Shown: positions 6,471-24,898 of the stretch, one piece after another
How the letters are laid out: the number at the start of each line of letters is the position of its first letter
Numbering within the stretch: the stretch's first letter is position 1
Origin: Escherichia phage SP27
Sequence record: LC494302.1
DNA length: 64,000 nucleotides
Reading direction: 5' to 3' (one strand)
Position numbers and translations under genes: made by a program
The notes under the pieces: generated by a model
What the model was told of the DNA's origin: nothing
The model's input: the letters and a program-made list of their open reading frames with translations, nothing else
Database searches by the model: none

Positions 6471-6530
6471 TTGCACCGTACTGATAAAAGCGTATAATGT
6501 TTTACATCGAGAGCGGGAACACTTCCCGCT
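6471..6530 (+). promoter_or_regulatory. early promoter + 5' hairpin cassette
   Basis: TTGCAC 6471-6476 /16/ TATAAT 6493-6498; hairpin AGCGGGAA-CAC-TTCCCGCT 6512-6530. Confidence 0.75.
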
Positions 6531-6553
6531 ACACATTAAGAGAGATTAAAACG

Positions 6554-6916
6554 ATGGCGACTCAAATCAATAAAATCATGCTTAACCTGGTAAACTTCCG
6601 CGATGAGATGAAAGGTCTTCCGGCTGAAACTGTAAAAATTCACATTGCAGCTTATCGGGAACTTATTGCAATGTTGCCGCTTAAGCGTGAACAATACGCC
6701 GCTACTTTGATGCTGGATTCAATGATCCATATAATGATCTCAAATGATTTAACGATGGTTTATCAGTACATGGGCGAAAATTTCGCGGTGTGTAGTAAGC
6801 CAGTACCAGGGATGGCAACAACTGAGGAATTGCACGGCTTAAACTTAAAACAAGATGCATGGGATAATATGCCTCGTTTCCTGGTATGGGCTGACAGTGG
6901 CAAAATTTACAAATAA
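6554..6916 (+). CDS. hypothetical protein
   Basis: 120 aa from MATQINKIM; track start 6497 lies inside promoter/hairpin so rejected; SD AAGAGAG. Confidence 0.8.
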   Translation: MATQINKIMLNLVNFRDEMKGLPAETVKIHIAAYRELIAMLPLKREQYAATLMLDSMIHIMISNDLTMVYQYMGENFAVCSKPVPGMATTEELHGLNLKQDAWDNMPRFLVWADSGKIYK

Positions 6917-6930
6917 GTTTAATAAAGTAC

Positions 6931-6989
6931 TTGCAAACTATGTTTAATGGCGTATAATGTTTTACATCAGGTGGGGAATAGTTCCCCAC
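6931..6989 (+). promoter_or_regulatory. early promoter + 5' hairpin cassette
   Basis: TTGCAA 6931-6936 /16/ TATAAT 6953-6958; hairpin GTGGGGAA-TAG-TTCCCCAC 6971-6989. Confidence 0.75.
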
Positions 6990-7008
6990 TATATAAGAGG
7001 ATTAAAAA

Positions 7009-7248
7009 ATGGCTAAATCAAAAATGTTCTTAGGTCACAAAAACAAAACTCATTGGAATGTAAGCCTGTGGATTAATAACGATGAGGGATTGTATCGGTT
7101 GGCCCTGGACTTTATTGCCGCCAATACTAATCGCAATGATGCGGCCCGTCATATGATGTTATTTTTAGAACAGACTGGACAAGATAAAACACCGGACGGA
7201 TTCAAATATAGCACTACTGCGATCCGTGCGGCGATGGTTGGAATGTAA
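7009..7248 (+). CDS. hypothetical protein (paralog of 9050..9289)
   Basis: 79 aa; shared HKNKTHWNVSLWINN...TPDGFKYSTTAIRAAMVGM. Confidence 0.85.
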   Translation: MAKSKMFLGHKNKTHWNVSLWINNDEGLYRLALDFIAANTNRNDAARHMMLFLEQTGQDKTPDGFKYSTTAIRAAMVGM

Positions 7249-7262
7249 TAGAATTTATTTAA

Positions 7263-7297
7263 AGTACTATCATTTTTTTGCGATAGTACTTTATAAT
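7263..7297 (+). promoter_or_regulatory. promoter with AGTACT inverted repeat (weak -35)
   Basis: AGTACTATC 7263-7271 / GATAGTACT 7282-7290, TATAAT 7292-7297; sister copy at 20303-20331 has TTGACA. Confidence 0.5.
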
Positions 7298-7334
7298 AGT
7301 GTTTTATTCATACACCAACGATAAGGGCAACAGC

Positions 7335-7601
7335 ATGAATATTAAGTATTTTGCGACGCGTGAACAAGCTCGGATCGCCGCACGCCAGGACGGGGCAACG
7401 TTTAAAGATATGGGAGCGGGATCGGCAAGTGGTGAACGTTGGGCCATTGTAAAGCGTAGTACGGCCAGATCTTTACAGTACTGGTTAGCGGCCTTAAAAA
7501 GTCCCGATAGTGTATCGCGTCGAGTGGTAGAAATAAAGCTCGACCGAAAGGGCAACCGCGTGACCGTGTACCGTACTAAAAAGATTGCAGTACTTGAATA
7601 A
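7335..7601 (+). CDS. hypothetical protein (paralog of 20376..20771)
   Basis: 88 aa from MNIKYFATREQARIAARQDGATFKDMG; C-term DRKGNRVTVYRTKK shared with paralog. Confidence 0.8.
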   Translation: MNIKYFATREQARIAARQDGATFKDMGAGSASGERWAIVKRSTARSLQYWLAALKSPDSVSRRVVEIKLDRKGNRVTVYRTKKIAVLE

Positions 7602-7608
7602 AAAGTAC

Positions 7609-7667
7609 TTGCAAACTATGTTTAATGGCGTATAATGTTTTACATCGAGAGCGGGAACACTTCCCGC
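7609..7667 (+). promoter_or_regulatory. early promoter + 5' hairpin cassette
   Basis: TTGCAA 7609-7614 /16/ TATAAT 7631-7636; hairpin GCGGGAA-CAC-TTCCCGC 7651-7667. Confidence 0.75.
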
Positions 7668-7688
7668 CTATAACCTGGAGTAATAAAA

Positions 7689-7919
7689 ATGACTAATATG
7701 TATATGACTGAAGTTAAAACCGTAAAAGATACTACCACGAATAAAACTACTTACTTACAGCGGATCTGTGGTGTATGGCAACGTATCAGCAAATCAAAGT
7801 ACTTTAAATTAACATCATATGCAAATCGTTCGGATTCATTCAGTACTGAAATAAAAGGTAATAAAGTACACCAATACGGCACTTATTATTATTATAGCCT
7901 GGACGCGATTGCAGTATAA
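7689..7919 (+). CDS. hypothetical protein
   Basis: 76 aa; SD GGAG 7677-7680; MTNMYMTEVKT. Confidence 0.8.
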   Translation: MTNMYMTEVKTVKDTTTNKTTYLQRICGVWQRISKSKYFKLTSYANRSDSFSTEIKGNKVHQYGTYYYYSLDAIAV

Positions 7920-7949
7920 GCAGTTTACAAATCTTTACAATTGCCGGTA

Positions 7950-8040
7950 TTGACTTATTTTGTCAGTACTGGCATAATGTATTCATTGGCAGATAAGCCG
8001 TAGCCCATAGGGTGCGGGAGTGTATCTATAGAAAAAGTAG
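7950..8040 (+). ncRNA. short promoter-driven noncoding unit (unit d)
   Basis: TTGACT 7950-7955 /17/ CATAAT 7973-7978; ...AGATAAGCCGTAGCCCATAGGGTGCGGGAGTGTATCTATAG; no ORF. Confidence 0.45.
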
Positions 8041-8122
8041 TTTAGTATAGTTACAATTGTGCACCCGGTGGGTTAGCTGTTGTCATGGGGTATATTATGC
8101 CAGTACTTGATAATGCTGTCAA
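8041..8122 (-). ncRNA. short promoter-driven noncoding unit (unit e), convergent with unit d
   Basis: Minus strand TTGACA (rc 8117-8122) /17/ CATAAT (rc 8094-8099); reads ...GCTAACCCACCGGGTGCACAATTGTAACTATAC. Confidence 0.45.
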
Positions 8123-8169
8123 TACTTTTTTTTTAATATTCAGTACTGAAAACTATTTTTAAAAAGTAC

Positions 8170-8197
8170 TTGCAAACTATGTTTAAAGGCGTATAAT
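8170..8197 (+). promoter_or_regulatory. early promoter (upstream of conserved leader)
   Basis: TTGCAA 8170-8175 /16/ TATAAT 8192-8197. Confidence 0.7.
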
Positions 8198-8203
8198 GTT
8201 TTA

Positions 8204-8287
8204 CATCAGGACGGGGAACGAAATAAGTAACTTCCCGTTAAGTAGCCCAGGAGTAAGGCACACGAAAAACTCCCCTGATAAAATAGT
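8204..8287 (+). ncRNA. conserved leader or short RNA of about 80 nt between tandem promoters
   Basis: No ATG; hairpin ACGGGGAA...TTCCCGT; near-identical copy at 19180-19260 with a compensated stem. Confidence 0.45.
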
Positions 8288-8315
8288 TTGACAATTGTTT
8301 TTAAAAGCGTATAAT
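8288..8315 (+). promoter_or_regulatory. sigma70-like promoter
   Basis: TTGACA 8288-8293 /16/ TATAAT 8310-8315; ATG 8348. Confidence 0.7.
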
Positions 8316-8347
8316 ACTTACATCAACTACTGAATGAGGGTTACAAA

Positions 8348-8959
8348 ATGAAAACTATCACTACTACTACTTATGTTATGGCTTTTTCTGAATTGAACGC
8401 AGAACAACAAACGTCAGCTATCGAACTGGTTCGGGAACGTGAAAAAAACTTAAACGATGATTATTTTTCTGAAAGTGAAATTGAATACTATAAAGAAACA
8501 GTACTACCGGAATATGGCATTAATGACGCTGAAATACAATTCAGTGGCTTTTGGTCCCAGGGTGACGGTGCATCAATCAGTACTGACCACGTTGACGCAG
8601 TGAAGTTTTTACGCAAGGTAAGAGCATTAACTAAGTATCGCTCAATCCGTCACTTGCTGAATGAAGATGATTTGGCGATGAGTGTAAAGCGTTCGCACTC
8701 CCACTACTCGCATGAGAATACTGTAAGCGGGTACATTGAATCGGCTTACACTGATTTAACCGCAAAACAAGAAACGTTAGTTAATGAGCTTGAGGAACTA
8801 CTCACTGAAACTATTCGTGAATTATCCCGCAAGTTGTACCGTGATTTAGAGAATGCATATGAGGATCAATTCACTACTGAAAACATTACGGCACTGATTG
8901 AGGGTAACGAATATCAATTCAATGTTATTGATGGAGTAGTAGAATCAATCGAATATTAA
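8348..8959 (+). CDS. hypothetical protein
   Basis: 203 aa; SD GAGGG; acidic; contains FSGFWSQGDGA motif that I cannot assign to a named family. Confidence 0.85.
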   Translation: MKTITTTTYVMAFSELNAEQQTSAIELVREREKNLNDDYFSESEIEYYKETVLPEYGINDAEIQFSGFWSQGDGASISTDHVDAVKFLRKVRALTKYRSIRHLLNEDDLAMSVKRSHSHYSHENTVSGYIESAYTDLTAKQETLVNELEELLTETIRELSRKLYRDLENAYEDQFTTENITALIEGNEYQFNVIDGVVESIEY

Positions 8960-8971
8960 TTTAAAAAGTAC

Positions 8972-9031
8972 TTGCAAACTAAGTTTAAAAGCGTATAATA
9001 CTTTATATCGAGGCGGGGAGTGGTTCCCCGC
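8972..9031 (+). promoter_or_regulatory. early promoter + 5' hairpin cassette
   Basis: TTGCAA 8972-8977 /16/ TATAAT 8994-8999; hairpin GCGGGGA...TCCCCGC 9013-9031. Confidence 0.75.
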
Positions 9032-9049
9032 TCAAACGAGGATTTAAAA

Positions 9050-9289
9050 ATGGCTAGTACTAAAACTTACAACGGACACAAAAACAAAACTCATTGGAAT
9101 GTAAGCCTTTGGATTAATAACGGTGAGTCATTGTATCGGCTTGCTCAAAGTTGCATCGCACAAAGTAGAACTAAAGATATTGCTGCGGAATGTATGTACC
9201 GCAGATTAAAAGCCAACGGTACTACTACAACGCCGGACGGCTTTAAGTATAGCACTACTGCGATCCGTGCTGCAATGGTTGGAATGTAA
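9050..9289 (+). CDS. hypothetical protein (paralog of 7009..7248)
   Basis: 79 aa from MASTKTYNGHKNKTHWNVSLWINN; track start 9020 runs through hairpin. Confidence 0.85.
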   Translation: MASTKTYNGHKNKTHWNVSLWINNGESLYRLAQSCIAQSRTKDIAAECMYRRLKANGTTTTPDGFKYSTTAIRAAMVGM

Positions 9290-9328
9290 TATTCAGTACT
9301 GAGATAATGGCGGGAACTATTACCCGCC
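9279..9328 (+). promoter_or_regulatory. weak promoter + 5' hairpin
   Basis: TTGGAA 9279-9284 /18/ GATAAT 9303-9308; hairpin GGCGGG...CCCGCC 9309-9328. Confidence 0.45.
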
Positions 9329-9346
9329 TTTACTGAGGGTTATCTA

Positions 9347-9634
9347 ATGAGTAAAGTAATAAAGTACAATGTGTTAAGCAAATCATTGTCTATCAGTGAA
9401 TGCACCGATGGTTTTTGGATGTACGATGAAACGCGTGGCATGAATTTAGCTATGCGTGCAAAAACTGCTGAGGCGGCGTATATTCAAGCACTGGAATACT
9501 ACCAGGAACGTTTGAAGGAAGTAGAAGAAGATTATAAAAGCCTCAAAGCGAAAGTAGATCATTTCGTCGGTCAATTCGTGGAAGACAACGACGAGGACGG
9601 GCACTACTGCGACCGTTGCGGATCTTACAGTTAA
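9347..9634 (+). CDS. hypothetical protein
   Basis: 95 aa; SD GAGGG; coiled-coil-like middle; C-term HYCDRCGSYS. Confidence 0.8.
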   Translation: MSKVIKYNVLSKSLSISECTDGFWMYDETRGMNLAMRAKTAEAAYIQALEYYQERLKEVEEDYKSLKAKVDHFVGQFVEDNDEDGHYCDRCGSYS

Positions 9635-9651
9635 GTACTAAGGATTATATA

Positions 9652-9864
9652 ATGAGTGATTTAATTGAACGTATCAAAGAGCTTGAAGAAAAAGAATTGC
9701 AGTTGATCGGGTTACGGAATAAAGTATTCCATGATTTAGGTGGCTTTATTAATGCCTGGGATAGTGGCGATCCTGATGCGTTACCTGCTAACCGCCAGGC
9801 GATGATCAATGATGTGCGTGGTGTCTTTGATTATGTTTTAAAAGTACTAGACACTAAGCAATAA
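9652..9864 (+). CDS. hypothetical protein
   Basis: 70 aa from MSDLIERIKELEEKE; SD AAGGA; track start 9616 overlaps upstream gene. Confidence 0.75.
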   Translation: MSDLIERIKELEEKELQLIGLRNKVFHDLGGFINAWDSGDPDALPANRQAMINDVRGVFDYVLKVLDTKQ

Positions 9865-9875
9865 AGGCGTATAAT
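9848..9875 (+). promoter_or_regulatory. sigma70-like promoter
   Basis: TAGACA 9848-9853 /16/ TATAAT 9870-9875. Confidence 0.55.
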
Positions 9876-9925
9876 ACTTTATATTGGTACTGACAAACAT
9901 TATAAGCGATGCAGGAGCTTTAATC

Positions 9926-10111
9926 ATGACAACATTATCTGAGGTTATCCGCGATCAAGCTGCAAAGGCTGGAATGACTGTTATCAATGTAGGGATCAAG
10001 ATTGAGATCTCCCCTAACGAGTTGCAAGGGATTCCCGATCCTACTAGCTGGGATCGTGCTGGGCGAATGATGAGTAATGCTTCATTACTGGACGGTACAA
10101 AATTTAATTAA
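9926..10111 (+). CDS. hypothetical protein
   Basis: 61 aa from MTTLSEVIRDQAAKAG; SD GCAGGAG 8 nt upstream; track start 9884 would precede the likely TSS. Confidence 0.7.
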   Translation: MTTLSEVIRDQAAKAGMTVINVGIKIEISPNELQGIPDPTSWDRAGRMMSNASLLDGTKFN

Positions 10112-10118
10112 AAAGTAC

Positions 10119-10178
10119 TTGCAATTAGTTTTCAGTACTGTATAATGGTTTACATCAAAGGGAGAAATGGTTCTCCCT
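10119..10178 (+). promoter_or_regulatory. early promoter + 5' hairpin cassette
   Basis: TTGCAA 10119-10124 /16/ TATAAT 10141-10146; hairpin AGGGAGAA-ATGG-TTCTCCCT 10159-10178. Confidence 0.75.
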
Positions 10179-10196
10179 GGTAATGAGGAAAATACA

Positions 10197-10418
10197 ATGG
10201 CTAATATCACTACTCTTTCCCAACTGGAAGCACTGGTTAAATCTATGCGGGAACATGCCGACAAAATCGGCGTACAAGATCCAGCCGTTTGCTTCTGCGA
10301 CGAATTGAATGATGATACACTGGTAATAGCAGAAGTCCAGGACGTTTCTAACTATTCCTCGCGTTACACTGGCGGCGTAGCAAATAAAGGTGACTTCTGT
10401 TTATACCTTACAAAATAA
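10197..10418 (+). CDS. hypothetical protein
   Basis: 73 aa from MANITTLSQLEAL; SD GAGGAA. Confidence 0.8.
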   Translation: MANITTLSQLEALVKSMREHADKIGVQDPAVCFCDELNDDTLVIAEVQDVSNYSSRYTGGVANKGDFCLYLTK

Positions 10419-10421
10419 CAA

Positions 10422-10455
10422 CGCGGGGAGATAATAACTCCCCGTTACTTTTTCA
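10422..10455. terminator. intrinsic terminator (possibly bidirectional)
   Basis: CGGGGAG 10424-10430 / CTCCCCG 10438-10444 then TTACTTTTT; A/T-rich on both sides. Confidence 0.7.
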
Positions 10456-10464
10456 GTACTGAAT

Positions 10465-10553
10465 CATTTAATAGACGGATCTCGGCACCCGGTGGGTTAG
10501 TGACTGTTTCGTCTTGATGTAGTAATTATGCCAGTACTGGATGCACTTGTCAA
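10465..10553 (-). ncRNA. short promoter-driven noncoding unit (unit f)
   Basis: Minus strand TTGACA (rc 10548-10553) /17/ CATAAT (rc 10525-10530); reads CATCAAGACGAAACAGTCACTAACCCACCGGGTGCCGAG. Confidence 0.45.
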
Positions 10554-10586
10554 CAACTATTTTTCAAATACTTTTTATTAAAATAC

Positions 10587-10641
10587 TTGCAATTAGTTTT
10601 TAAACGCGTATAATGTTTTGCATAGGGGGAGCGGTTCCCCT
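10587..10641 (+). promoter_or_regulatory. early promoter + 5' hairpin cassette
   Basis: TTGCAA 10587-10592 /16/ TATAAT 10609-10614; hairpin AGGGGGA-GCGG-TTCCCCT 10624-10641. Confidence 0.75.
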
Positions 10642-10661
10642 GGTAACTAAGGAATAATAAA

Positions 10662-10898
10662 ATGCTTGAACAAATCAAATCAACGTCTGCGAATGTAACG
10701 GGAACGGTTGTACACTTTACTAGTGATGAATCGCGGGGCGTTCCCTATTGTGCTGTACATGTAAACACTGATGGCAACTACTGGTTTACGGTTTACGGAT
10801 CATATTCATTTGGACGGCCAGGGCATCAAAAAATTCTGGATAAAGTACAACCAACGGGTAAAAATATCACTGCCGAAATGTTTTATAAAAAATCATAA
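10662..10898 (+). CDS. hypothetical protein
   Basis: 78 aa; SD AAGGAA; MLEQIKSTSANVTG. Confidence 0.8.
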   Translation: MLEQIKSTSANVTGTVVHFTSDESRGVPYCAVHVNTDGNYWFTVYGSYSFGRPGHQKILDKVQPTGKNITAEMFYKKS

Positions 10899-10903
10899 AG
10901 TAC

Positions 10904-10963
10904 TTGCAATTAGTTTTTAGTACTGTATAATATTTTACATCGCAAGGGGAAACGGTTTCCCCT
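10904..10963 (+). promoter_or_regulatory. early promoter + 5' hairpin cassette
   Basis: TTGCAA 10904-10909 /16/ TATAAT 10926-10931; hairpin AGGGGAA-ACGGT-TTCCCCT 10945-10963. Confidence 0.75.
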
Positions 10964-10982
10964 GGTAACTAAGGATAATCAA

Positions 10983-11282
10983 ATGAAAATTGCAATCATC
11001 GCCCTGGCTTTATCTGTTTCCTCTTTCGCTGTTAATGCGTCGTTAGATGTAAGTAGTGAAAAATTCATTCAGTGCACTGTTGCAATGACCGATGAAAGAA
11101 CTGGCGAGATTGTATTAAAGGATTTAGAGATCCAGCCGGAAGCATTTAAAAACGGCCCGTTCCATGAAGAAGACGAAAACGGTAGCACGACAATTTATTA
11201 TGATGCCAGTTCCAAGCGTGGATCGGTCACTGTAATGGATACTGAGAAAGTAACACACACAGGCGTTATTAATTGCCGTTGA
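10983..11282 (+). CDS. secreted or periplasmic protein (Sec-type signal peptide)
   Basis: 99 aa; MKIAIIALALSVSSFAVNA then SLDV: basic N-term, hydrophobic core, A-x-A-like site. Confidence 0.8.
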   Translation: MKIAIIALALSVSSFAVNASLDVSSEKFIQCTVAMTDERTGEIVLKDLEIQPEAFKNGPFHEEDENGSTTIYYDASSKRGSVTVMDTEKVTHTGVINCR

Positions 11283-11303
11283 TAGATACTACGGGGTAAC
11301 ATC

Positions 11304-11534
11304 ATGACTAAGCGAATTGTTTTACTTAACGAAAGCAGTACTACACAACTACTTAACGCCGTGCATTATGATATTGAAACGAGCGTTAATCTTATCAGTA
11401 CTGTAGTACTGTTGGACACTGGAAAGGTCGCCAATGATAAAGCGATTGCAGGTATATTAACGGATCTTGAGCCTGGTAGCAGTGCACCCATAACGTTAAA
11501 TGGTAAAGTGTTTAATATTTTACTCACTGATTAA
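11304..11534 (+). CDS. hypothetical protein
   Basis: 76 aa; SD ACGGGG; MTKRIVLLNESS. Confidence 0.75.
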   Translation: MTKRIVLLNESSTTQLLNAVHYDIETSVNLISTVVLLDTGKVANDKAIAGILTDLEPGSSAPITLNGKVFNILLTD

Positions 11535-19869: not shown

Positions 19870-19872
19870 GTA

Positions 19873-19933
19873 TTGACAAAGTATCTTAGTACTGTATAAT
19901 AGTTTACATCAAGTGAGGGGAATGGTTCCCCTC
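19873..19933 (+). promoter_or_regulatory. early promoter + 5' hairpin cassette (near-duplicate of 19602-19663)
   Basis: TTGACA 19873-19878 /16/ TATAAT 19895-19900; hairpin GAGGGGAA-TGG-TTCCCCTC 19915-19933. Confidence 0.75.
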
Positions 19934-19956
19934 CTAACTAAAAGAGAGAAATAAAA

Positions 19957-20280
19957 ATGGCTATGATCCTTGCCCAGAAAGTAGAATTGAAAATTGTAAC
20001 CTCCTTTGACATTAACGTTAATCGGTGGACTGATTCACACGGCAATACTTACCACTCTTGCTACGTGTCTGCGTTAATTGGCGACCGCTGGGAAGACCTG
20101 GGACACGAAACCTTTACATACGGTTACGGTACACAAGGCGAATACACGGGCTTGGAGATCATTAAAGAAACCGTTATAGGTTTCAACCCGAAAGAAAAAG
20201 TTATTCACCGCATCGAGGAAGAGATCAACAAAGAAATAACAGTTCGCTACCACGATGTAAAACGTAAGAAAGACATGTAA
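19957..20280 (+). CDS. hypothetical protein (paralog of 13074..13418)
   Basis: 107 aa; GNTYHS ... YGYG ... DVKRKKDM. Confidence 0.85.
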   Translation: MAMILAQKVELKIVTSFDINVNRWTDSHGNTYHSCYVSALIGDRWEDLGHETFTYGYGTQGEYTGLEIIKETVIGFNPKEKVIHRIEEEINKEITVRYHDVKRKKDM

Positions 20281-20302
20281 TAGAATCCATTTAAAGTACT
20301 AT

Positions 20303-20331
20303 TTGACATTGCCCAGATAGTACTTTATAAT
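20303..20331 (+). promoter_or_regulatory. promoter with AGTACT inverted repeat
   Basis: AGTACTA-TTGACA 20303-20308 /17/ TATAAT 20326-20331, GATAGTACT in spacer. Confidence 0.7.
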
Positions 20332-20375
20332 AGACTCTAACTTGTAGTACTAACTCAACTAATAGGATGTATACC

Positions 20376-20771
20376 ATGATTACTAAATTCTACGCTACCC
20401 GTGAAGCTGCCCGTATTGTTGCACGCGAGGAAGGCGAAACATTTAAAGACATGGGCAAAGATGCACCGAAAGGTCAACGCTGGGCCGTACAGTTCAAAGA
20501 GATCTCTGATATTGTGAATTCACCGGAGCCAGTACTAACAGCAGCAGAACTAAAACGAGCGGATTTACTGGCGTCAATACTTGATGCACAAGATGAGTTT
20601 ATCGCTGATTCTGATATCAAAGTACAGACAAACCACACCGCTTGGACTCACGCGGATCACCTGGCAAACCTTAAGCGTCCAAGTGAACTGATTCGCAACC
20701 AGAAAGAGATCCGACACGACCGTAAGGGTAATCGTGTAACAGTATACAGTAAACGCCGCCAGGTTATCTAA
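20376..20771 (+). CDS. hypothetical protein (paralog of 7335..7601)
   Basis: 131 aa from MITKFYATREAARIVAREEGETFKDMG; SD AGGA 7 nt upstream; alternative ATG at 20367. Confidence 0.8.
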   Translation: MITKFYATREAARIVAREEGETFKDMGKDAPKGQRWAVQFKEISDIVNSPEPVLTAAELKRADLLASILDAQDEFIADSDIKVQTNHTAWTHADHLANLKRPSELIRNQKEIRHDRKGNRVTVYSKRRQVI

Positions 20772-20793
20772 TAACTTGCAGTACTAACAACAC

Positions 20794-20818
20794 GGCGGGA
20801 TCAGTTCCCGCCTTTTTT
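20794..20818 (+). terminator. intrinsic terminator
   Basis: GGCGGGA 20794-20800 / TCCCGCC 20806-20812 then TTTTTT. Confidence 0.85.
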
Positions 20819-20832
20819 ATAGGACAAACAAA

Positions 20833-21087
20833 ATGATTAAGGTTCAACTATATAAAGATAACATCTTACGGGTACACTATAAAGCACCTCAGAGAATCAT
20901 CACAAAGGCCGTACAGCTTGCAAATGAGTTTATTAATGGTAACCTATTACCTAGGAAGTTAAGCAACGGGAAACTGCGTGTAATCGACGTGGACACTAAC
21001 AACAGGATAGTAATCGAGAACACAGGAAAGATAAACCTTTATGAGCATCAACAATACAATAAGAAAATAAAACTAATATCACGTTGA
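20833..21087 (+). CDS. hypothetical protein
   Basis: 84 aa; SD AGGA; MIKVQLYKDNILRV. Confidence 0.75.
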   Translation: MIKVQLYKDNILRVHYKAPQRIITKAVQLANEFINGNLLPRKLSNGKLRVIDVDTNNRIVIENTGKINLYEHQQYNKKIKLISR

Positions 21088-21112
21088 CAGTACTCAAATG
21101 TTTTAGTACTAT
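21084..21112 (+). promoter_or_regulatory. sigma70-like promoter
   Basis: TTGACA 21084-21089 /17/ TACTAT 21107-21112. Confidence 0.6.
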
Positions 21113-21140
21113 ATGTACATACCAACACGGGGGAAACAAA

Positions 21141-21383
21141 ATGATTACTTTAGAAAAACGTATCAAAGAAACTACATCGCTGGTGGAACTGTTAACAGTA
21201 CTCAAATGTAAAACAACACCATTCAGCACGCCGGACTTTATTAATATGGTTGATGTTAATGGTCGCTATCGTATCACGGTCGAACAAGGAGCGGCGAAAG
21301 TATTCAGTACTAAAAACACGAAGGAAGTGATCCACGCCGTTAATGTTAAAAAAGTAGTTGCCATTGATAGTAAAGTACTGTAA
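21141..21383 (+). CDS. hypothetical protein
   Basis: 80 aa from MITLEKRIKETTS; SD GGGGGAA; track start 21084 coincides with the -35 element. Confidence 0.75.
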   Translation: MITLEKRIKETTSLVELLTVLKCKTTPFSTPDFINMVDVNGRYRITVEQGAAKVFSTKNTKEVIHAVNVKKVVAIDSKVL

Positions 21384-21414
21384 GATAGTTACATTAACTC
21401 AAGGAGAACATGCA

Positions 21415-21999
21415 ATGCGTAATTATACTAAATTCATCCGTACACTGTCAGAAATGGAAACCAACAAAGAGATCCTTTCAGCTTGTCGGTTAGCTGGCCT
21501 GGAGATCATCGGTGCTGGTTCTTCCCGTATAGTTTTCGCTTTAAATGATCGGTTAGTGATTAAGGTCGCGAATTGTGATGCGGGTGTAGAACAAAATGAA
21601 ACTGAATGTAAGGTATGGAATTTTTTAGACTATGACCGCCCTCAGTTGAAACAGTACTTTGCAAAGGTGCATATGCATTTATGCGATCCTGATAATATGT
21701 TTATCGTTATGGATCGGTTGAGTACTGCAAGTAAAGGCAGTGTGAAGCACGTAAACGCGTGCAATGAATTAAAGTACAATATTAAACGTAATGCAATCGA
21801 CCGCCAGCACCGCTTTGCTGATGCACTACAACACGTTGATGATACATTATCAACACTAACGATAAGAGATATCAGAAAACAGAATATCGGCCAGGATCGT
21901 AATGGACTTATTAAAGTACTTGATTACGGTTTAACCAGCAATATCTGGAATCAGTACTATAAAAAGCGTGATGTGGCAGCAAGTAAGGTAACACGATAA
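21415..21999 (+). CDS. protein-kinase-like protein (putative Ser/Thr kinase fold)
   Basis: 194 aa from MRNYTKF; SD AAGGAG; IGAGSSRIVF (Gly loop), VIKVA (Lys), DIRKQNIG (D-x-K-x-x-N catalytic loop), VLDYG (DFG-like). Confidence 0.65.
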   Translation: MRNYTKFIRTLSEMETNKEILSACRLAGLEIIGAGSSRIVFALNDRLVIKVANCDAGVEQNETECKVWNFLDYDRPQLKQYFAKVHMHLCDPDNMFIVMDRLSTASKGSVKHVNACNELKYNIKRNAIDRQHRFADALQHVDDTLSTLTIRDIRKQNIGQDRNGLIKVLDYGLTSNIWNQYYKKRDVAASKVTR

Positions 22000-22007
22000 A
22001 AAAGATT

Positions 22008-22100
22008 AAAAAAGGGATTGACTCCGGTCAGTCCCTTTGCTATTATATATCCATTGAGAGATAACTCACTGACCCATAGGGTGCGGAAGTGTATCTATTA
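22008..22100 (+). ncRNA. short promoter-driven noncoding unit (unit j), promoter embedded in terminator-like hairpin
   Basis: GGGATTGAC-TCCG-GTCAGTCCC; TTGACT 22018-22023 /17/ TATTAT 22041-22046; ...GAGATAACTCACTGACCCATAGGGTGCGGAAGTGTATCTATTA. Confidence 0.45.
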
Positions 22101-22140
22101 TATAAGTATTCAGTACTGAAAACTATTTTTAAAAAAGTAC

Positions 22141-22200
22141 TTGCATTGTACTTAGAATCAAGTATAATGTTTTATATCGAGAGGGGAAATGGTTCTCCCT
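22141..22200 (+). promoter_or_regulatory. early promoter + degenerate 5' hairpin
   Basis: TTGCAT 22141-22146 /16/ TATAAT 22163-22168; AGGGGAAA...TTCTCCCT 22182-22200 with one mismatch. Confidence 0.65.
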
Positions 22201-22219
22201 GGCAATAAGGAATAAAATC

Positions 22220-22441
22220 ATGACTACAATGACTTGCATTTACGCTTCCAATCTACTGAATGATGCGGCCTTTAATGTTGATTCAGAATATCAATGTTAT
22301 CGGGATGAAAATAAAAAAGTTTTTGTAGTTGATAATAATGGTTTCCATATTGAATTACAATCCGGCTTCACTGGTGTTGATGGTAAATCAGTATGGGGCG
22401 TACAGGATGATAAAGGCACATATCATTTTAAACGTAATTAA
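22220..22441 (+). CDS. hypothetical protein
   Basis: 73 aa; SD AAGGAA; MTTMTCIYASNLL. Confidence 0.8.
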   Translation: MTTMTCIYASNLLNDAAFNVDSEYQCYRDENKKVFVVDNNGFHIELQSGFTGVDGKSVWGVQDDKGTYHFKRN

Positions 22442-22444
22442 GTA

Positions 22445-22503
22445 TTGACAAAGTATACCAGTACTGTATAATAGTTTACATCAAGGGGAGAATAGTTCTC
22501 CCC
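22445..22503 (+). promoter_or_regulatory. early promoter + 5' hairpin cassette
   Basis: TTGACA 22445-22450 /16/ TATAAT 22467-22472; hairpin GGGGAGAA-TAG-TTCTCCCC 22485-22503. Confidence 0.75.
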
Positions 22504-22525
22504 GATACTAAAAGGAAACAAAATT

Positions 22526-22798
22526 ATGTCCAGCTACTCCGCTACTATGATCATTAAAGATATGAACGGTAATCCTACTTCTGCTGGTGGATCATTTGGA
22601 AACATTAATTTAGATGGTCGGTTATCCATGCAATCAGCAATCGATGCAGCGAAAGAAGTTTTTAAGAATGAATGTACTGTTAGTAAGCTGGATTATATGG
22701 GATTTGCTATCGAAAAAACTAATCGTTTTGTGGACTACAAAAAACCACTGATGATTGATACTAACCTGAAAGCAAACGAAGTGGAGTACTTATTATGA
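22526..22798 (+). CDS. hypothetical protein
   Basis: 90 aa; SD AAAGGAA; MSSYSATMIIKDMNG. Confidence 0.8.
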   Translation: MSSYSATMIIKDMNGNPTSAGGSFGNINLDGRLSMQSAIDAAKEVFKNECTVSKLDYMGFAIEKTNRFVDYKKPLMIDTNLKANEVEYLL

Positions 22799-22986
22799 CA
22801 GTTGAAGAAGTTAAAAAAGTACTGGCAGTACTACGCTATCATAATCATTGTAAGGTGAAGAATGATCCTGATTATCTTGATTCATCCCTGGAAGAGGATA
22901 CACTACAAGCAATAAGCCATATGCAAACATTAGCAAAGCGTATGACCGAAAAGAATAGACCGGACTATATCGGAAATAAAATTTAA
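22795..22986 (+). CDS. hypothetical protein
   Basis: 63 aa; ATGA overlap; MTVEEVKKVLAVL. Confidence 0.75.
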   Translation: MTVEEVKKVLAVLRYHNHCKVKNDPDYLDSSLEEDTLQAISHMQTLAKRMTEKNRPDYIGNKI

Positions 22987-22993
22987 AAAGTAC

Positions 22994-23054
22994 TTGCATT
23001 GTAGTTAGATTAACGTATAATGTTTTACATAGAGCGGGGGAATAGTTCTCCCGC
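22994..23054 (+). promoter_or_regulatory. early promoter + 5' hairpin cassette
   Basis: TTGCAT 22994-22999 /16/ TATAAT 23016-23021; hairpin GCGGGGGAA-TAG-TTCTCCCGC 23034-23054 (one G-U). Confidence 0.75.
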
Positions 23055-23072
23055 CAGTCCAGGAGATACACC

Positions 23073-23336
23073 ATGAACACTATCGAAATCACTATCAATG
23101 CACACGTATACGACAACGTAATCATGCAAACTACTATGACCGCTAATGATACCAGTACTTTGCGGAATACTGTTATTAGTGCCGTATGTGCCGCTATCGG
23201 TGATGTCGCCCTGGAAAATGCAGAACATATCAACAACGGTTTCACTATGTGCAAGCGTGATAACGCAAAACATATCATCGTAGAAGGTTACGGCGGTGTA
23301 GAATTTAATGTTTATATGAAAAAAGTACTTGCATAA
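23073..23336 (+). CDS. hypothetical protein
   Basis: 87 aa; SD CAGGAG; MNTIEITINAHVYDN; 3' end overlaps next promoter. Confidence 0.8.
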   Translation: MNTIEITINAHVYDNVIMQTTMTANDTSTLRNTVISAVCAAIGDVALENAEHINNGFTMCKRDNAKHIIVEGYGGVEFNVYMKKVLA

Positions 23337-23385
23337 TAACTAAAACAAAGTATAATGTTTTGCATAGGGGGAGATATCCTCCCCC
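23329..23385 (+). promoter_or_regulatory. early promoter + 5' hairpin cassette
   Basis: TTGCAT 23329-23334 /16/ TATAAT 23351-23356; hairpin GGGGGAG...CTCCCCC 23367-23385. Confidence 0.7.
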
Positions 23386-23403
23386 ACTAAAAGGAGTAAT
23401 AAA

Positions 23404-23628
23404 ATGGCTAACTTTGATGAACTGATGCGGGAAGTAGCTAACCTGGCAGAAGAGAAGAAATCATTCGATTCTATCTATAACACCGCTCATCGTGATTCAG
23501 TACTGGCATGTACTCAGGATCAAAAAGATGAACTAATCGCCACCTATCATGAAGCATGGAAGTACTACCGACAATGGGAGAAAGAAGAAAGAGAGTCTAC
23601 CATTGACGGCCTCAACAATCTAATCTAA
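23404..23628 (+). CDS. hypothetical protein
   Basis: 74 aa; SD AAGGAG; MANFDELMREVANL. Confidence 0.85.
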   Translation: MANFDELMREVANLAEEKKSFDSIYNTAHRDSVLACTQDQKDELIATYHEAWKYYRQWEKEERESTIDGLNNLI

Positions 23629-23647
23629 AAGTTTTATTTCAGTACTA

Positions 23648-23676
23648 TTGACATAGCTTGATAGTACTGATGTAAT
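23648..23676 (+). promoter_or_regulatory. type-B promoter flanked by AGTACT inverted repeat
   Basis: CAGTACTA-TTGACA 23648-23653 /17/ TGTAAT 23671-23676. Confidence 0.6.
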
Positions 23677-23704
23677 AACTTTACTAACTACAAGGGGAAA
23701 CATA

Positions 23705-23962
23705 ATGGAACAGTTCACACAATATCGGGTAAATCCTCAAGCTATGGCCTACGTAGAAGACCATAAAACATTACCAGTACTAACACCAATTAAAGGCCAT
23801 ATCTATCGTGCAATGTCATGGAATACCGCCCAGGATGGATATACTACCGCTGGCGTGGGTATGTATTGCGGGAATGGTGAATGGTTTGATCCAAATAATC
23901 CGGTAGCCATTGACAGTACTGAAAAAATGAAATGGGCCGACTACATCGAAGATATTTCATAA
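23705..23962 (+). CDS. hypothetical protein
   Basis: 85 aa; SD AAGGGGAA; MEQFTQYRVNPQ. Confidence 0.8.
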   Translation: MEQFTQYRVNPQAMAYVEDHKTLPVLTPIKGHIYRAMSWNTAQDGYTTAGVGMYCGNGEWFDPNNPVAIDSTEKMKWADYIEDIS

Positions 23963-23968
23963 AACTAT

Positions 23969-24029
23969 TTGACAGTACTAACCAGTAATGTATAATGTTT
24001 TACATAGAGCGGGGGAATAGTTCTCCCGC
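23969..24029 (+). promoter_or_regulatory. early promoter + 5' hairpin cassette
   Basis: TTGACA 23969-23974 /16/ TATAAT 23991-23996; hairpin GCGGGGGAA-TAG-TTCTCCCGC 24009-24029. Confidence 0.75.
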
Positions 24030-24051
24030 CAATAGTTTGGAGTAAAACATT

Positions 24052-24252
24052 ATGTCTATCGCTATCGCCCTGGTTGAAGTACTGAAAGAAGCTAAAGCCA
24101 ACCAGATCGACGTAAAGATCCAGGAACTACAAAACGGCGTAATCGGCTGTACTTGTACCGCTGGTGGAGCGGCAGACTATCGAGAACACGAATCACTCGA
24201 ATCACTGGTTCGGTATCTTACCATGATCGTTGATGATTGGAGAATCATCTAA
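24052..24252 (+). CDS. hypothetical protein
   Basis: 66 aa; SD TGGAG; MSIAIALVEVLKEAK. Confidence 0.8.
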   Translation: MSIAIALVEVLKEAKANQIDVKIQELQNGVIGCTCTAGGAADYREHESLESLVRYLTMIVDDWRII

Positions 24253-24264
24253 CAAAAAAGAATA

Positions 24265-24352
24265 AAAAAGGGATTGACTCCGGTCAGTCCCTTTGCTATT
24301 ATATACGCATAGACAAAAACTAGCCCACAGGGTGCATAGGTGTATCTAAAAT
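24265..24352 (+). ncRNA. short promoter-driven noncoding unit (unit k), promoter embedded in terminator-like hairpin
   Basis: GGGATTGAC-TCCG-GTCAGTCCC; TTGACT 24275-24280 /16/ TATTAT 24297-24302; CATAGACAAAAACTAGCCCACAGGGTGCATAGGTGTATCTAAA. Confidence 0.45.
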
Positions 24353-24414
24353 ATATGGTTAATAACGGTGAGTAACTATCTGCTGGTGGAGTGAAAACTA
24401 TTAATAAAAAAGTA

Positions 24415-24443
24415 TTGACAAAGTATATCAGTACTGCGATAAT
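24415..24443 (+). promoter_or_regulatory. sigma70-like promoter
   Basis: TTGACA 24415-24420 /17/ GATAAT 24438-24443; leader differs from cassette type. Confidence 0.65.
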
Positions 24444-24496
24444 GTATCTCGTAGGGCGGCAATGGTGCGACGGCCCACAAAGTTAGGAGATTCAAA

Positions 24497-24829
24497 ATGA
24501 GTACTTCAATCGCTATCGTTAAAGCTTTCATCCGTACCAATGTTTCATCTGTATTCATCGACGGTATGGATCGGGAAGTAGAATACTCAATCATTATCGC
24601 ACAGACTGCAAACGGTGCTCGGTATATCCTCAATGATAGTGAAGCAAATCACTACTACTTCACTAAAGCTACTGGCTTTAAACGCATCGATGCCGATGTA
24701 GTATACGCTAAGATGAATAAGCTGGTAGACAAGATTAACGCTAAAGGCACTATTGATTTACAGTACTGGACCGAAACCGATCCAGAATATGGATCTCACC
24801 GCTACCTGAATCCAGGTATTAAAATGTAA
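24497..24829 (+). CDS. hypothetical protein
   Basis: 110 aa; SD TAGGAG; MSTSIAIVKAFIRT. Confidence 0.85.
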   Translation: MSTSIAIVKAFIRTNVSSVFIDGMDREVEYSIIIAQTANGARYILNDSEANHYYFTKATGFKRIDADVVYAKMNKLVDKINAKGTIDLQYWTETDPEYGSHRYLNPGIKM

Positions 24830-24836
24830 AAAGTAC

Positions 24837-24898
24837 TTGCATAGTACTTAGATTCATGTATAATGTTTTACATAGAGAGGGGGAAATGGTTCTCCCTC
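24837..24898 (+). promoter_or_regulatory. early promoter + 5' hairpin cassette
   Basis: TTGCAT 24837-24842 /16/ TATAAT 24859-24864; hairpin GAGGGGGAA-ATGG-TTCTCCCTC 24877-24898 (one G-U). Confidence 0.75.

Follow-up and report, generated by a model that had tools for sequence, protein, structure and literature searches.

Promoter-early stem-loops (PeSLs) of phages RB49 and phi1 usually have the stem-loop between the −35 and −10 elements or overlapping the −10, where it acts as a terminator (PMC2839356). Base pairing at the 5′ end of a message slows RNase E greatly, and the ompA and papA mRNAs are stabilised by 5′ stem-loops (PMC3997798). The T7 gene 10 leader carries a stem-loop and an A/U-rich tract 5′ of the Shine-Dalgarno sequence (SD), which raise mRNA stability and expression (PMC6146998). 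At the T5 N25 and T7 A1 promoters, escape is favoured when the initial transcribed sequence is rich in purines, and output falls about 10-fold when it is rich in pyrimidines (PMC12464699, PMC5961368).

Here we analysed a 64,000-nucleotide stretch (the window) of an Asteriusvirus-type jumbo coliphage, whose relatives include PBECO4, 121Q, G17 and fEgEco12. We found in the literature neither a prior description of the promoter-hairpin cassette reported below nor an Asteriusvirus transcriptome.

A promoter-hairpin cassette recurs within the terminal repeat

All copies of the cassette lie inside one feature of the window:

4822..25750, + strand: direct terminal repeat (DTR), about 21 kb, with about 50 small early genes

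The bounds were set by alignment: window 4822 matches position 1 of fEgEco12, and window 25750 is where the G17 record begins. The fEgEco12 DTR is 20,993 bp as determined from PhageTerm and restriction digests (PMC13070987), and the repeat annotations of vB_Ec-M-J and fENko-Kae01 are concordant with this placement.

Each copy combines three parts: a strong promoter of the host type, a ribosome site and, close to the predicted start of the message, a small RNA hairpin. The promoter is near-consensus for host sigma70 and reads, in order, an A/T-rich tract with AGTACT, TTGCAA or TTGACA, a 16-nt spacer, and TATAAT-GTTTTACAT, with an AT-rich discriminator. The predicted start is the A of CAT, followed by 3–5 unpaired purines and a G·C-rich hairpin of 7–9 bp whose 5′ arm is rich in G; roughly 7 nt of A/U-rich spacer then lead to the SD and the ATG, giving a short leader of 40–50 transcribed nt from the predicted start. 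The 23 positions listed in the first-pass annotation were all −35 starts of real cassettes, one of them shifted by a base (15113 to 15114). The four stems it quoted were right, as were its G-U sites at 14567, 23034, 24009 and 24877, to which the cassette with its −35 at 12453 adds two G-U pairs. The copies are as follows:

6462..6556, + strand: cassette; −35 TTGCAC 6471, −10 6493, predicted start 6506, hairpin 6512-6530 AGCGGGAA-cac-TTCCCGCT, ATG 6554
6922..7011, + strand: cassette; −35 6931, −10 6953, predicted start 6966, hairpin 6970-6990 GGTGGGGAA-tag-TTCCCCACT, ATG 7009
7600..7691, + strand: cassette; −35 7609, −10 7631, predicted start 7644, hairpin 7648-7669, ATG 7689
8161..8290 (8170), + strand: long-loop variant, 27.5 bits; same promoter, hairpin, then about 85 nt of structured non-coding leader, directly abutting another promoter at 8288 that lacks the hairpin
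8963..9052, + strand: cassette; −35 8972, −10 8994, predicted start 9007, hairpin 9012-9032 GCGGGGAG-tgg-TTCCCCGC, ATG 9050
10110..10199, + strand: cassette; −35 10119, −10 10141, predicted start 10154, hairpin 10159-10178, ATG 10197
10578..10664, + strand: cassette; −35 10587, −10 10609, predicted start 10622, hairpin 10623-10642, ATG 10662
10895..10985, + strand: cassette; −35 10904, −10 10926, predicted start 10939, hairpin 10942-10966, ATG 10983
12444..12538, + strand: cassette; −35 12453, −10 12475, predicted start 12488, hairpin 12493-12514 with two G-U pairs, ATG 12536
12763..12851, + strand: cassette; −35 12772, −10 12794, predicted start 12807, hairpin 12812-12831 GGGGAGAA-atgg-TTCTCCCC, ATG 12849
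14289..14379, + strand: cassette; −35 14298, −10 14320, predicted start 14333, hairpin 14338-14357, ATG 14377
14518..14607, + strand: cassette; −35 14527, −10 14549, predicted start 14562, hairpin 14567-14586 with one G-U pair, ATG 14605
15105..15195, + strand: cassette; −35 15114, −10 15136, predicted start 15149, hairpin 15152-15176, ATG 15193
15540..15630, + strand: cassette; −35 TTGACA 15549, −10 15571, predicted start 15584, hairpin 15589-15607, ATG 15628
17662..17748, + strand: cassette, E=0.049; −35 17671, degenerate −10 TTATAG, hairpin 17710-17728 AGGGGAA-acatc-TTCCCCT, ATG 17746
18283..18371, + strand: cassette; −35 18292, −10 18314, predicted start 18327, hairpin 18332-18351, ATG 18369
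19137..19262 (19146), + strand: second copy of the long-leader variant, 28.9 bits; a hairpin-less promoter adjoins at 19262
19593..19689, + strand: cassette; −35 19602, −10 19624, predicted start 19637, hairpin 19641-19665 with core GAGGGGAA-acgg-TTCCCCTC, ATG 19687
19864..19959, + strand: cassette; −35 19873, −10 19895, predicted start 19908, hairpin 19912-19935, ATG 19957
22132..22222, + strand: cassette; −35 22141, −10 22163, predicted start 22176, bulged weaker hairpin 22178-22202 (−8.4 kcal/mol), ATG 22220
22436..22528, + strand: cassette; −35 22445, −10 22467, predicted start 22480, hairpin 22485-22503, ATG 22526
22985..23075, + strand: cassette; −35 22994, −10 23016, predicted start 23029, hairpin 23034-23054 with one G-U pair, ATG 23073
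23320..23406, + strand: cassette; −35 23329, −10 23351, predicted start 23364, hairpin 23367-23385 GGGGGAG-atatc-CTCCCCC, ATG 23404
23960..24054, + strand: cassette; −35 23969, −10 23991, predicted start 24004, hairpin 24009-24029 with one G-U pair, ATG 24052
24828..24921, + strand: cassette, 5′ end almost fully paired; −35 24837, −10 24859, predicted start 24872, hairpin 24873-24901 with one G-U pair, ATG 24919

A degenerate copy lies at 11617, and hairpins of the cassette type without a promoter at 5773 and 10423. The other promoter classes of the cassette region have no hairpin.

Scanning the window for near-consensus sigma70 promoters (TTGCAA/TTGACA, 16 nt, TATAAT) revealed 31 on the + strand (5186 to 24864), against only 4 weaker matches on the − strand. 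The extended −10 motif TATAATRNTTTAYAT had 54 matches at ≤2 mismatches, compared with 16.5 ± 4.6 in shuffles. An unfiltered search of the 64 kb with a covariance model built on the hairpin and its −10 element detected 24 copies with E<0.01 as well as a weak 25th (17694, E=0.049), all on the + strand from 6493 to 24903, and none elsewhere in the 64 kb.

Across 139 unique copies the stem begins 8–17 nt past the −10 (modes at 12 and 10 nt) and is followed by the SD after 3–11 nt and by the ATG after 16–25 nt, with means of 11.7 ± 1.6, 7.3 ± 1.4 and 19.8 ± 1.9 nt, respectively; these values correct the first-pass spacings (stem about 10–15 nt past the −10, SD and ATG 8–20 nt later). By promoter geometry, nearly all copies have their predicted start 1–7 nt 5′ of the stem, leaving 0–6 unpaired 5′ nucleotides in 144 of 151 unique leaders, and 3–5 in most copies. 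From +4 to +14 the consensus is G or A at each position (G+A 84–99% per position).

Of the predicted 5′ UTRs, 20 were folded, and in each the hairpin was both the minimum-energy and the centroid fold (−8.4 to −15.9 kcal/mol; most z-scores −2 to −3.8), with the SD and AUG unpaired and the A/U-rich spacer also left free. Mean minimum free energy over the first 45 nt was −12.6 kcal/mol for cassettes versus −3.8 for other consensus promoters at the same loci.

Stem covariation and wobble pairs point to an RNA structure

The first-pass annotation had preferred an RNA structure to a protein-bound DNA palindrome, and this reading is supported by sequence comparison: by covariation, by the excess of G·T over A·C, by variable loops and by the promoter geometry. 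We aligned 108 distinct copies from the window, A4, G17, 121Q, fENko-Kae01, RaK2, IMG/VR contigs and one Phapecoctavirus. Paired cells made up 97.5% of the total (59–83% in slid controls), and compensatory double changes occurred at 7 of 8 pairs (96 cells), values that 0 of 500 shuffles reached; these counts are of cells, not independent events, as cassettes spread by copying, and the alignment was fitted to the structure of the covariance model. RNAalifold independently recovered the same helix.

On the + strand, 54 mismatched cells were of the wobble type (53 G·T and 1 T·G), against 12 of the alternative type (11 A·C and 1 C·A), and at the inner pairs G·T outnumbered A·C by about 50 to 3. 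Loops are 3–5 nt and variable in sequence (ATGG, TAG, ACATC, CGG, CAC and others). A purine occupies the 5′ arm in about 97% of Watson-Crick cells (704 G-C or A-U versus 20 C-G or U-A), a bias for which structure alone gives no reason and which could mean a sequence-specific partner or common descent.

Loop inversions between orthologues (cac/gtg, tag/cta) and G-run slippage were also observed, and show that DNA-level palindrome dynamics also shape the cassette repeats.

Comparison with PeSLs and other candidate roles

The cassette could be a PeSL-like linker, i.e., a portable homology block for the gain, loss and exchange of early ORFans with a stem-loop that attenuates upstream transcription, a role documented for the RB49 and phi1 elements (PMC2839356); we consider this unlikely. 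It fits individual cases: gene-sized indels between relatives end in or beside cassettes (e.g., window 9052/10099 and 12490/12523), fEgEco12 has an extra gene between two copies of the cassette matching window 22440-22538, and orthologous genes carry different cassette variants. Cassettes hold 14 of 41 unique breakpoints, versus 15.5% expected (p=0.0025), but they account for 14 of the 32 non-coding breakpoints (44%) and 43% of non-coding sequence, thus there is no enrichment beyond lying between genes. Synteny breakpoints with relatives favour intergenic DNA generally, not the cassette in particular, and the portable recombination module proposed at first pass gains no specific support. Homology-driven exchange also leaves the selection for pairing and the asymmetry of G·U over A·C unexplained. 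Furthermore, since the hairpin lies 3′ of the start specified by its own promoter, termination at that point would cut off the cassette's own message; no cassette hairpin was flagged as terminator-like and the U-tract is absent. In RB49 and phi1 the terminator usually overlaps the −10 or lies between it and the −35, whereas here the stem-loop follows the predicted start and lacks a U-tract, and for this reason the cassette is not a PeSL member and the likeness drawn earlier holds as an analogy only.

About equally doubtful is a common RNA handle, by which the hairpin would bind a phage or host RNA-binding protein or nuclease that co-regulates all immediate-early mRNAs, for example in timed shut-off, protection during phage-induced host mRNA decay, or nut-like antitermination. 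Arm orientation (G-rich 5′ arm, C/U-rich 3′ arm) and core (GGGG.A / U.CCCC) are conserved across jumbo phages of E. coli, Salmonella and Klebsiella, the position relative to start and SD is fixed, and the copies are limited to one temporal gene class and to the terminal repeat. However, the loops vary in both length and sequence, 7 of the 8 stem pairs vary, no boxA-like motif accompanies the hairpin, and the orientation bias is explained more simply by a purine-rich initial transcribed sequence and shared ancestry. Searches of the larger repeat-encoded proteins against Pfam and PHROGs brought out no candidate RNA-binding protein and matched only a GNAT acetyltransferase, a kinase (weakly), a PHROG 'DNA ligase' (weakly) and families of unknown function.

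A duplex operator, in which the inverted repeat (about +5 to +27) would bind a dimeric repressor that shuts early promoters, is very improbable: the repeat lies just past the start, where bound protein would block RNA polymerase, and has conserved half-site-like cores (GGGGA, TCCCC), but half-site spacing varies by at least 2 bp and by up to about 18 in variants, such a protein would poorly tolerate loops variable in length and sequence, paired positions co-vary, and the imperfections of the many imperfect palindromes are G·T rather than A·C (54 to 12), an asymmetry that is meaningless for duplex DNA and thus counts against an operator. There is likewise very little to recommend a switch in which the pyrimidine-rich 3′ arm serves as an anti-SD that the 5′ arm normally hides, and in which loss or cleavage of the 5′ arm (e.g., a RegB-like cut at GGAG, present in many 5′ arms) would free the 3′ arm to pair with the SD and silence the message: once the 5′ arm is taken away, folding predicts that at least 3 nucleotides of the SD pair with the 3′ arm in 23/23 copies, but the energies are weak (0 to −7 kcal/mol) and the complementarity is at the level of composition, arm shuffles being equally stable (mean z = −0.07).

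Proposed role as a 5′ stabiliser

On balance we lean, with some reserve, towards the cassette being a self-contained immediate-early unit whose 5′-UTR hairpin stabilises the message, boosts expression and keeps the ribosome site free. Transcription probably begins 8 nt past the −10, at the A in the conserved CAT, and the mRNA would therefore open with 3–5 unpaired purines and then the hairpin. As RNA, the hairpin would be a 5′-proximal stabiliser and expression enhancer, impeding 5′-end entry that depends on RppH and RNase E and insulating the ribosome site against the sequence that precedes it. The same three-part design of stem-loop, A/U-rich tract and SD is found in the T7 gene 10 leader, and the ompA leader is similar in its stabilising 5′ stem-loop.

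RppH is reported to require as few as 2–3 unpaired 5′ nucleotides. As most copies keep 3–5, 5′ protection may be partial, and the predicted unpaired nucleotides may suffice for RppH or RNase E action. The orthologues of gene 12536 in fEgEco12, G17 and A4 have a promoter without the hairpin, which indicates that at least some genes can do without it, and pairing is lost in one A4 copy.

The G/A-rich 5′ arm at +4 to +14 and its strict orientation probably reflect selection for a purine-rich initial transcribed sequence, which would let RNA polymerase leave a near-consensus promoter quickly, as in T5 N25; the arm probably also aids promoter escape. As a side effect, the conserved unit of about 100 bp would supply homology for cassette or gene exchange between relatives. 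The first-pass interpretation stands in part, and the cassette appears to be a real but fairly conventional expression device.

Cassettes in the terminal repeat

A 6-kb piece of the cassette-bearing early region was matched by megablast to Asteriusvirus jumbo coliphages (A4, EC.P1, CMSTMSU, G17, PBECO4 and others) with 91–97% identity. Window position 4822 is the alignment point of fEgEco12 position 1, and the G17 record begins its alignment at position 25750. For fEgEco12, PhageTerm and restriction digests established both the physical ends and a direct terminal repeat of 20,993 bp (PMC13070987), and the same genes are covered by the repeat annotations of vB_Ec-M-J and fENko-Kae01. Given these alignments to genome ends and the repeat annotations, the cassette coordinates fall inside a terminal repeat of ~21 kb (window 4822–25750).

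The terminal repeat holds about 50 small genes on the + strand, nearly all without known function. Pfam and PHROGs searches with the ten largest repeat-encoded proteins gave no candidate RNA-binding partner of the hairpin: the matches were to a GNAT acetyltransferase, to a kinase (below threshold), to a PHROG labelled DNA ligase (one, weak) and to families without known function; a tRNA/tmRNA scan gave no match. In Rak2-like and Asteriusvirus jumbo phages generally, hardly any of the terminal-repeat genes has a known function, and they look like host-takeover genes. Flanking the repeat (window 3968–4548 and 25848–29184) are arrays of densely packed genes of 60–90 aa that often overlap at their stop and start codons and lack promoters of their own, in sharp contrast to the one-promoter-per-gene layout inside the repeat; the fEgEco12 annotation is alike in this respect. 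The first ~1.6 kb of the repeat (4822–6460) has no convincing gene. It contains many CAGTACTGA repeats and, especially at 5560–5730, an array with 8-nt periodicity (CTGGATGG / GGCTAGAC / GGCTAAAC, units of 24–32 nt), possibly a signal for end recognition, injection or replication. The megablast matches to the early region also included records with unexpected labels, seven of them Campylobacter phages and the rest from a few other genera; these could be mislabelled records or reflect small genes or promoters in common.

Cassette copies and promoter classes

The region contains 31 sigma70 promoters close to consensus, all with a spacer of exactly 16 nt and all on the + strand, and the extended -10 motif was found 54 times, compared with 16.5 ± 4.6 in shuffled sequences. 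A covariance model of the -10 element and hairpin, run unfiltered on both strands of the whole 64 kb, recovered 25 copies, 24 of them at E<0.01 and the last at E=0.049, exclusively on the + strand between 6493 and 24903. All 23 cassette positions listed in the first-pass annotation were real. The copy with its -35 at 17671 has a degenerate -10 element, and those at 8170 and 19146 have a long-loop variant of the hairpin followed by a second promoter. A single pattern scan of IMG/VR found the cassette in five contigs only.

Two other promoter types in the repeat have no hairpin: TTGACAAT...TATAATACTTACATCAAC, with a 25-nt leader, and TTGACA-17-TGGCATAAT. The hairpin thus travels with one promoter class, that with TATAATGTTTTACAT. 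Several further elements were noted beside the cassettes.

Other repeated and structured elements of the early region (window coordinates)
8161–8350 and 19137–19325: tandem promoters, the first of the hairpin class
10423–10445 and 5773–5787: promoter-less hairpins of the GGGGA...TCCCC type
14984–15011, 19019–19046, 22011–22038 and 24267–24294: four copies of a 12-bp terminator-like hairpin, AAAGGGATTGACTCCGGTCAGTCCCTTT
8004, 8049 (- strand), 15046, 16720, 19076, 22073 and 24324: seven copies (0 expected) of a 24-mer, CCCAYAGGGTGCRNRARTGTATCT

In both tandem units a structured non-coding stretch of ~85 nt, whose 5' AUCAGG is able to pair with a 3' CCUGAU, lies 3' of the hairpin-class promoter, and the second, hairpin-less promoter (TTGACAAT...TATAATACTTACATCAAC) lies between this stretch and the gene; the arrangement is kept in A4, G17 and 121Q. 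Most copies of the 24-mer are in ORF-free stretches just 3' of TGGCATAAT-type promoters or promoter-like sites of the TTGACT-17-TATTAT type, and may be small non-coding RNAs. Those at 8004 (+) and 8049 (-) are the two arms of a long inverted repeat.

The first-pass annotation had included AAAGTAC, before the -35, in the cassette. This motif is one instance of a palindrome, AGTACT (consensus (C)AGTACT(G)), which occurs 270 times in the window versus 18.6 expected from dinucleotide shuffles. The palindrome is dense at 1–25619, 30411–32849 and from 40549 onward, and absent from 25620–30410 and 32850–40548; within the terminal repeat there are 4.2 copies per kb of coding sequence and 11.3 per kb of intergenic sequence. 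In 18 of 25 cassettes the -35 begins with the last T of an AGTACT, and nine of 25 have a second AGTACT ending 1 nt 5' of the -10. The palindrome was enriched 13–20 times in all Rak2-like loci examined (A4, G17, fEgEco12, PBECO4, fENko-Kae01, RaK2 and IMG/VR contigs), with no enrichment in the Phapecoctavirus nepoznato. We found no paper on this abundance, which may be a more unusual feature of the sequence than the cassette.

Pairing in the hairpin is conserved

We aligned 128 copies, 108 of them distinct, which came from the window, A4, G17, 121Q, PBECO4-like contigs, Klebsiella phage fENko-Kae01, RaK2, IMG/VR contigs and Phapecoctavirus nepoznato. Standard pairs occupied 97.5% of the alignment cells and changes on both sides were seen at seven of the eight pairs (96 cells), where all counts are of cells and not of independent events, the copies having spread by duplication and the alignment having been fitted to the model. 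None of 500 shuffles reached any of the observed pairing measures, and sliding the partner by 1–3 columns lowered pairing to 59–83%. RNAalifold, making its own prediction, recovered six of the eight pairs, each with compensatory changes. The first-pass annotation had favoured an RNA structure over a DNA operator and called for a covariation analysis, and the compensatory changes bear this preference out.

The cells that depart from Watson-Crick pairing are strongly asymmetric (53 G·T and 1 T·G versus 11 A·C and 1 C·A; about 50 G·T to 3 A·C at the six inner pairs), and one column presents the classic series of G-C, G-U and A-U (48/31/23). This asymmetry fits a + strand RNA structure and would be meaningless for duplex DNA. 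Together with the covariation and the variable spacing of the half-sites, which argues against a dimeric DNA-binding protein, it makes a DNA operator very unlikely. It is the pairing that is conserved rather than the sequence, as in a stabilising stem-loop, alongside a strong purine/pyrimidine bias of the arms: the purine is on the 5' arm in ~97% of Watson-Crick cells (704 versus 20).

Anatomy of the leader

The geometry of 139 unique copies from the SP27 window and its relatives is constrained. The stem, 7–9 bp with a loop of 3, 4 or 5 nt (about 30 loop sequences), begins 11.7 ± 1.6 nt 3' of the -10 (range 8–17; +1 to +10 from the predicted start), and is separated by 7.3 ± 1.4 nt from the SD and by 19.8 ± 1.9 nt from the ATG. 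E. coli RNA polymerase usually starts at a purine that follows a pyrimidine, 6–9 nt 3' of the -10; by this rule the cassette start should be the A of the conserved CAT. From this predicted start, 144 of 151 unique leaders have 0–6 unpaired 5' nt (modes 3 and 5), and every consensus base from +4 to +14 is a G or an A (G+A 84–99% at each position). The first 45 nt have a mean folding energy of -12.6 kcal/mol, versus -3.8 at other consensus promoters of the same loci. When 20 predicted leaders were folded, the hairpin was both the minimum-energy and the centroid structure in all 20 (-8.4 to -15.9 kcal/mol; z mostly -2 to -3.8), with the SD and AUG single-stranded.

A proposed early expression unit

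Each of these features has a relative among known leaders. The T7 gene 10 leader, used in expression vectors, has a stem-loop and an A/U tract that each raise mRNA stability and output (PMC6146998). It shares with the cassette the order of its parts, the stem-loop coming first, then an A/U-rich tract and then a strong SD, and a stem with a G/A-rich 5' side and a U/C-rich 3' side. It differs in being used once, from a late promoter of T7 RNA polymerase, whereas the cassette serves many early promoters of the host RNA polymerase. Base-paired 5' ends slow RNase E, and ompA and papA mRNAs are stabilised by 5' stem-loops (PMC3997798), likewise simple hairpins near the 5' end with an accessible ribosome site 3' of them. 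By this analogy, the cassette hairpin would be expected to hinder 5'-end-dependent decay. The ompA and papA leaders are single-gene elements with measured effects on half-life, whereas the cassette is a ~24-copy family of one sequence type whose leaders, unlike theirs, have 3–5 predicted unpaired 5' nt. These free nucleotides may still be open to RppH, which is the main weakness of reading the hairpin as a stabiliser.

At the escape-limited consensus promoters of T5 and T7, escape is aided when the initial transcribed sequence is rich in purines, and its pyrimidine-rich mirror reduces productive RNA ~10-fold (PMC12464699, PMC5961368). T5 N25 and T7 A1 resemble the cassette: each is a near-consensus sigma70 promoter of a virulent phage, limited at escape, whose non-template strand is strongly purine-rich at ~+3 to +20. 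No conserved hairpin has been described in the N25 leader, whereas the purine run of the cassette has a downstream complement.

We propose, as the most likely reading, that the cassette is an optimised immediate-early expression unit. We infer that the 5' arm would serve promoter escape as a purine-rich initial transcribed sequence, and that the 3' arm would turn this 5' purine run into a protective hairpin that insulates the SD. The 5' arm is read as an escape element because its purine bias is not needed by structure alone and matches the early promoters of T5 and T7.

An unlikely alternative is that the hairpin is a common recognition mark on ~24 immediate-early mRNAs, read by a phage-encoded, virion-delivered or host factor. 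Across hosts, both the orientation of the arms and the GGGG/CCCC core are kept, as such a mark would have them, but the loops and stems are variable and there is no companion motif. Were it true, the orientation and core would be recognition features and not by-products, and the phage could handle its first ~24 mRNAs as one regulon, for example sparing them while it speeds up host mRNA decay or shutting them off jointly in the early-to-middle transition. A switch in which the 3' arm masks the SD in truncated leaders is possible on paper, since the two can pair in 23 of 23 such leaders, but this pairing is no better than in a composition-matched shuffle (mean z = -0.07) and gives the switch no specific support.

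Small RNA structures just 3' of early promoters are known from lambda boxB, with its fixed 5-bp stem, conserved pentaloop and adjacent boxA, and from HK022 put, with two stem-loops in about 70 nt; unlike these, the cassette has one helix, variable loops and no companion motif. A lambda-type nut site was rejected on the varying loops (3–5 nt, about 30 sequences) and the lack of a boxA-like neighbour, as no conserved flanking motif was found beyond the A/U-rich spacer and SD. The Rfam covariance models gave no match in window 1–30000 at E<=1. An intrinsic terminator is unlikely, as the cassette hairpins have no U-tract and 0 of 23 were listed among terminator-like hairpins; a terminator 3' of its own promoter's start would defeat the cassette.

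Terminator-like hairpins are present elsewhere in the terminal repeat, where they were marked by the G17 annotators. The promoter-less hairpin at 10423 is one of those listed as terminator-like, being 3' of a gene and followed by a T-run, and suggests that the stem-loop module is reusable in another role.

Comparison with PeSL cassettes and gene exchange

The first-pass annotation had likened the cassettes to promoter-early stem-loop (PeSL) elements, described in the T4-like phages RB49/phi1, PST and nt-1 (PMC2839356, PMC4122927). The likeness extends to the layout: both are ~100-bp intergenic repeats in which a strong early promoter of sigma70-like type follows an A/T-rich tract and is accompanied by a G/C-rich stem-loop containing G-T pairs, with an SD and start codon at the end. 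Both precede small ORFans of a variable region, and in several cases indels between close relatives end at cassettes, as they do at PeSLs. It does not extend to the stem-loop, which in PeSLs usually lies between the -35 and -10, over the -10 or just before the start, and was shown to be a terminator (PMC2839356). That of the cassette is neither within nor upstream of the promoter; it lies 3' of the predicted start, in the 5' UTR, and has no U-tract. The cassette is also in an unrelated jumbo phage and in the terminal repeat only, and the comparison is one of layout. The PeSL is the nearest described repeat, with a different defining stem-loop position and role. The AAAGGGATTGACTCCGGTCAGTCCCTTT repeats are arranged as genuine PeSLs are, the stem-loop sharing sequence with a promoter: a promoter-like site (TTGACT-17-TATTAT with TG) has its TTGACT within the stem. 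Their equivalents in G17 are annotated as ARNOLD terminators.

Several gene-sized indels between relatives end at cassettes, and fEgEco12 has an extra gene between two copies of the cassette matching window 22440–22538, indicating that exchange at cassettes happens. These individual cases agree with the earlier suggestion that the cassettes are portable recombination modules; a cassette-specific hotspot is not supported. The raw count of 29 of 73 breakpoints became 14 of 41 when only unique positions were considered (15.5% expected, p=0.0025), and shrank to the intergenic level within non-coding DNA, where cassettes account for 44% of breakpoints and 43% of the sequence. This breakpoint comparison gave no sign that the cassette is a better exchange substrate than other intergenic repeats.

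Variation among relatives

Orthologues whose coding starts are 90–100% identical often have differing cassette variants. The arms before the gene with its ATG at 7009 are GGTGGGGAA/TTCCCCACT in the window, GGCGGGGGA/TTCCCCGCT in A4 and AGCGGGAA/TTCCCGCC in a Phapecoctavirus, and the gene at 12536 has the hairpin cassette in the window and PBECO4 and a hairpin-less promoter in fEgEco12, G17 and A4. Pairing is lost in one A4 copy, and the length of the G-run in the 5' arm is variable (up to 9 G in A4). In two orthologous pairs the loop is exactly inverted and the stems unchanged (window 6512–6530 versus PBECO4, cac/gtg; window 22485–22503 versus fEgEco12, tag/cta). Such inversion is a DNA-level palindrome event, of the kind that template switching or recombination across the palindrome would leave.

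Escherichia phage nepoznato (Phapecoctavirus) is a 151-kb phage of a different subfamily. Most small genes of its early region have a sigma70-like promoter, a 5' hairpin that differs in sequence type (GGGCGGC-AATGG-GCCGCC) and then an SD; a few of its cassettes are of the SP27-window type, and window 24415–24497 holds a cassette of the nepoznato type. As an analogous layout fills this early region, the design may be common in large coliphages.

Implications for early gene expression

The literature on Asteriusvirus, PBECO4, 121Q, phAPEC6, CBB, Sharanji, fEgEco12 and PA5oct mentions no 5' hairpin; for CBB, phAPEC6, Sharanji, fEgEco12 and PA5oct, it reports at most RpoD-like promoters with an UP element in the early region. 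No Asteriusvirus transcriptome was found in our literature search. The cassette embodies no new principle, each of its ingredients having a known counterpart. What it shows is that about half of the terminal-repeat genes are, by prediction, driven by one standard promoter-leader-ribosome-site unit.

As a compact natural part comprising a strong promoter, a structured leader and an SD, the cassette is testable and reusable, and its ~100 natural variants offer a series for the joint effect of a 5' hairpin and a purine-rich initial transcribed sequence on mRNA output. For the phages themselves, the cassettes give a precise map of the predicted immediate-early transcription units and landmarks for tracking gene shuffling in the repeat.
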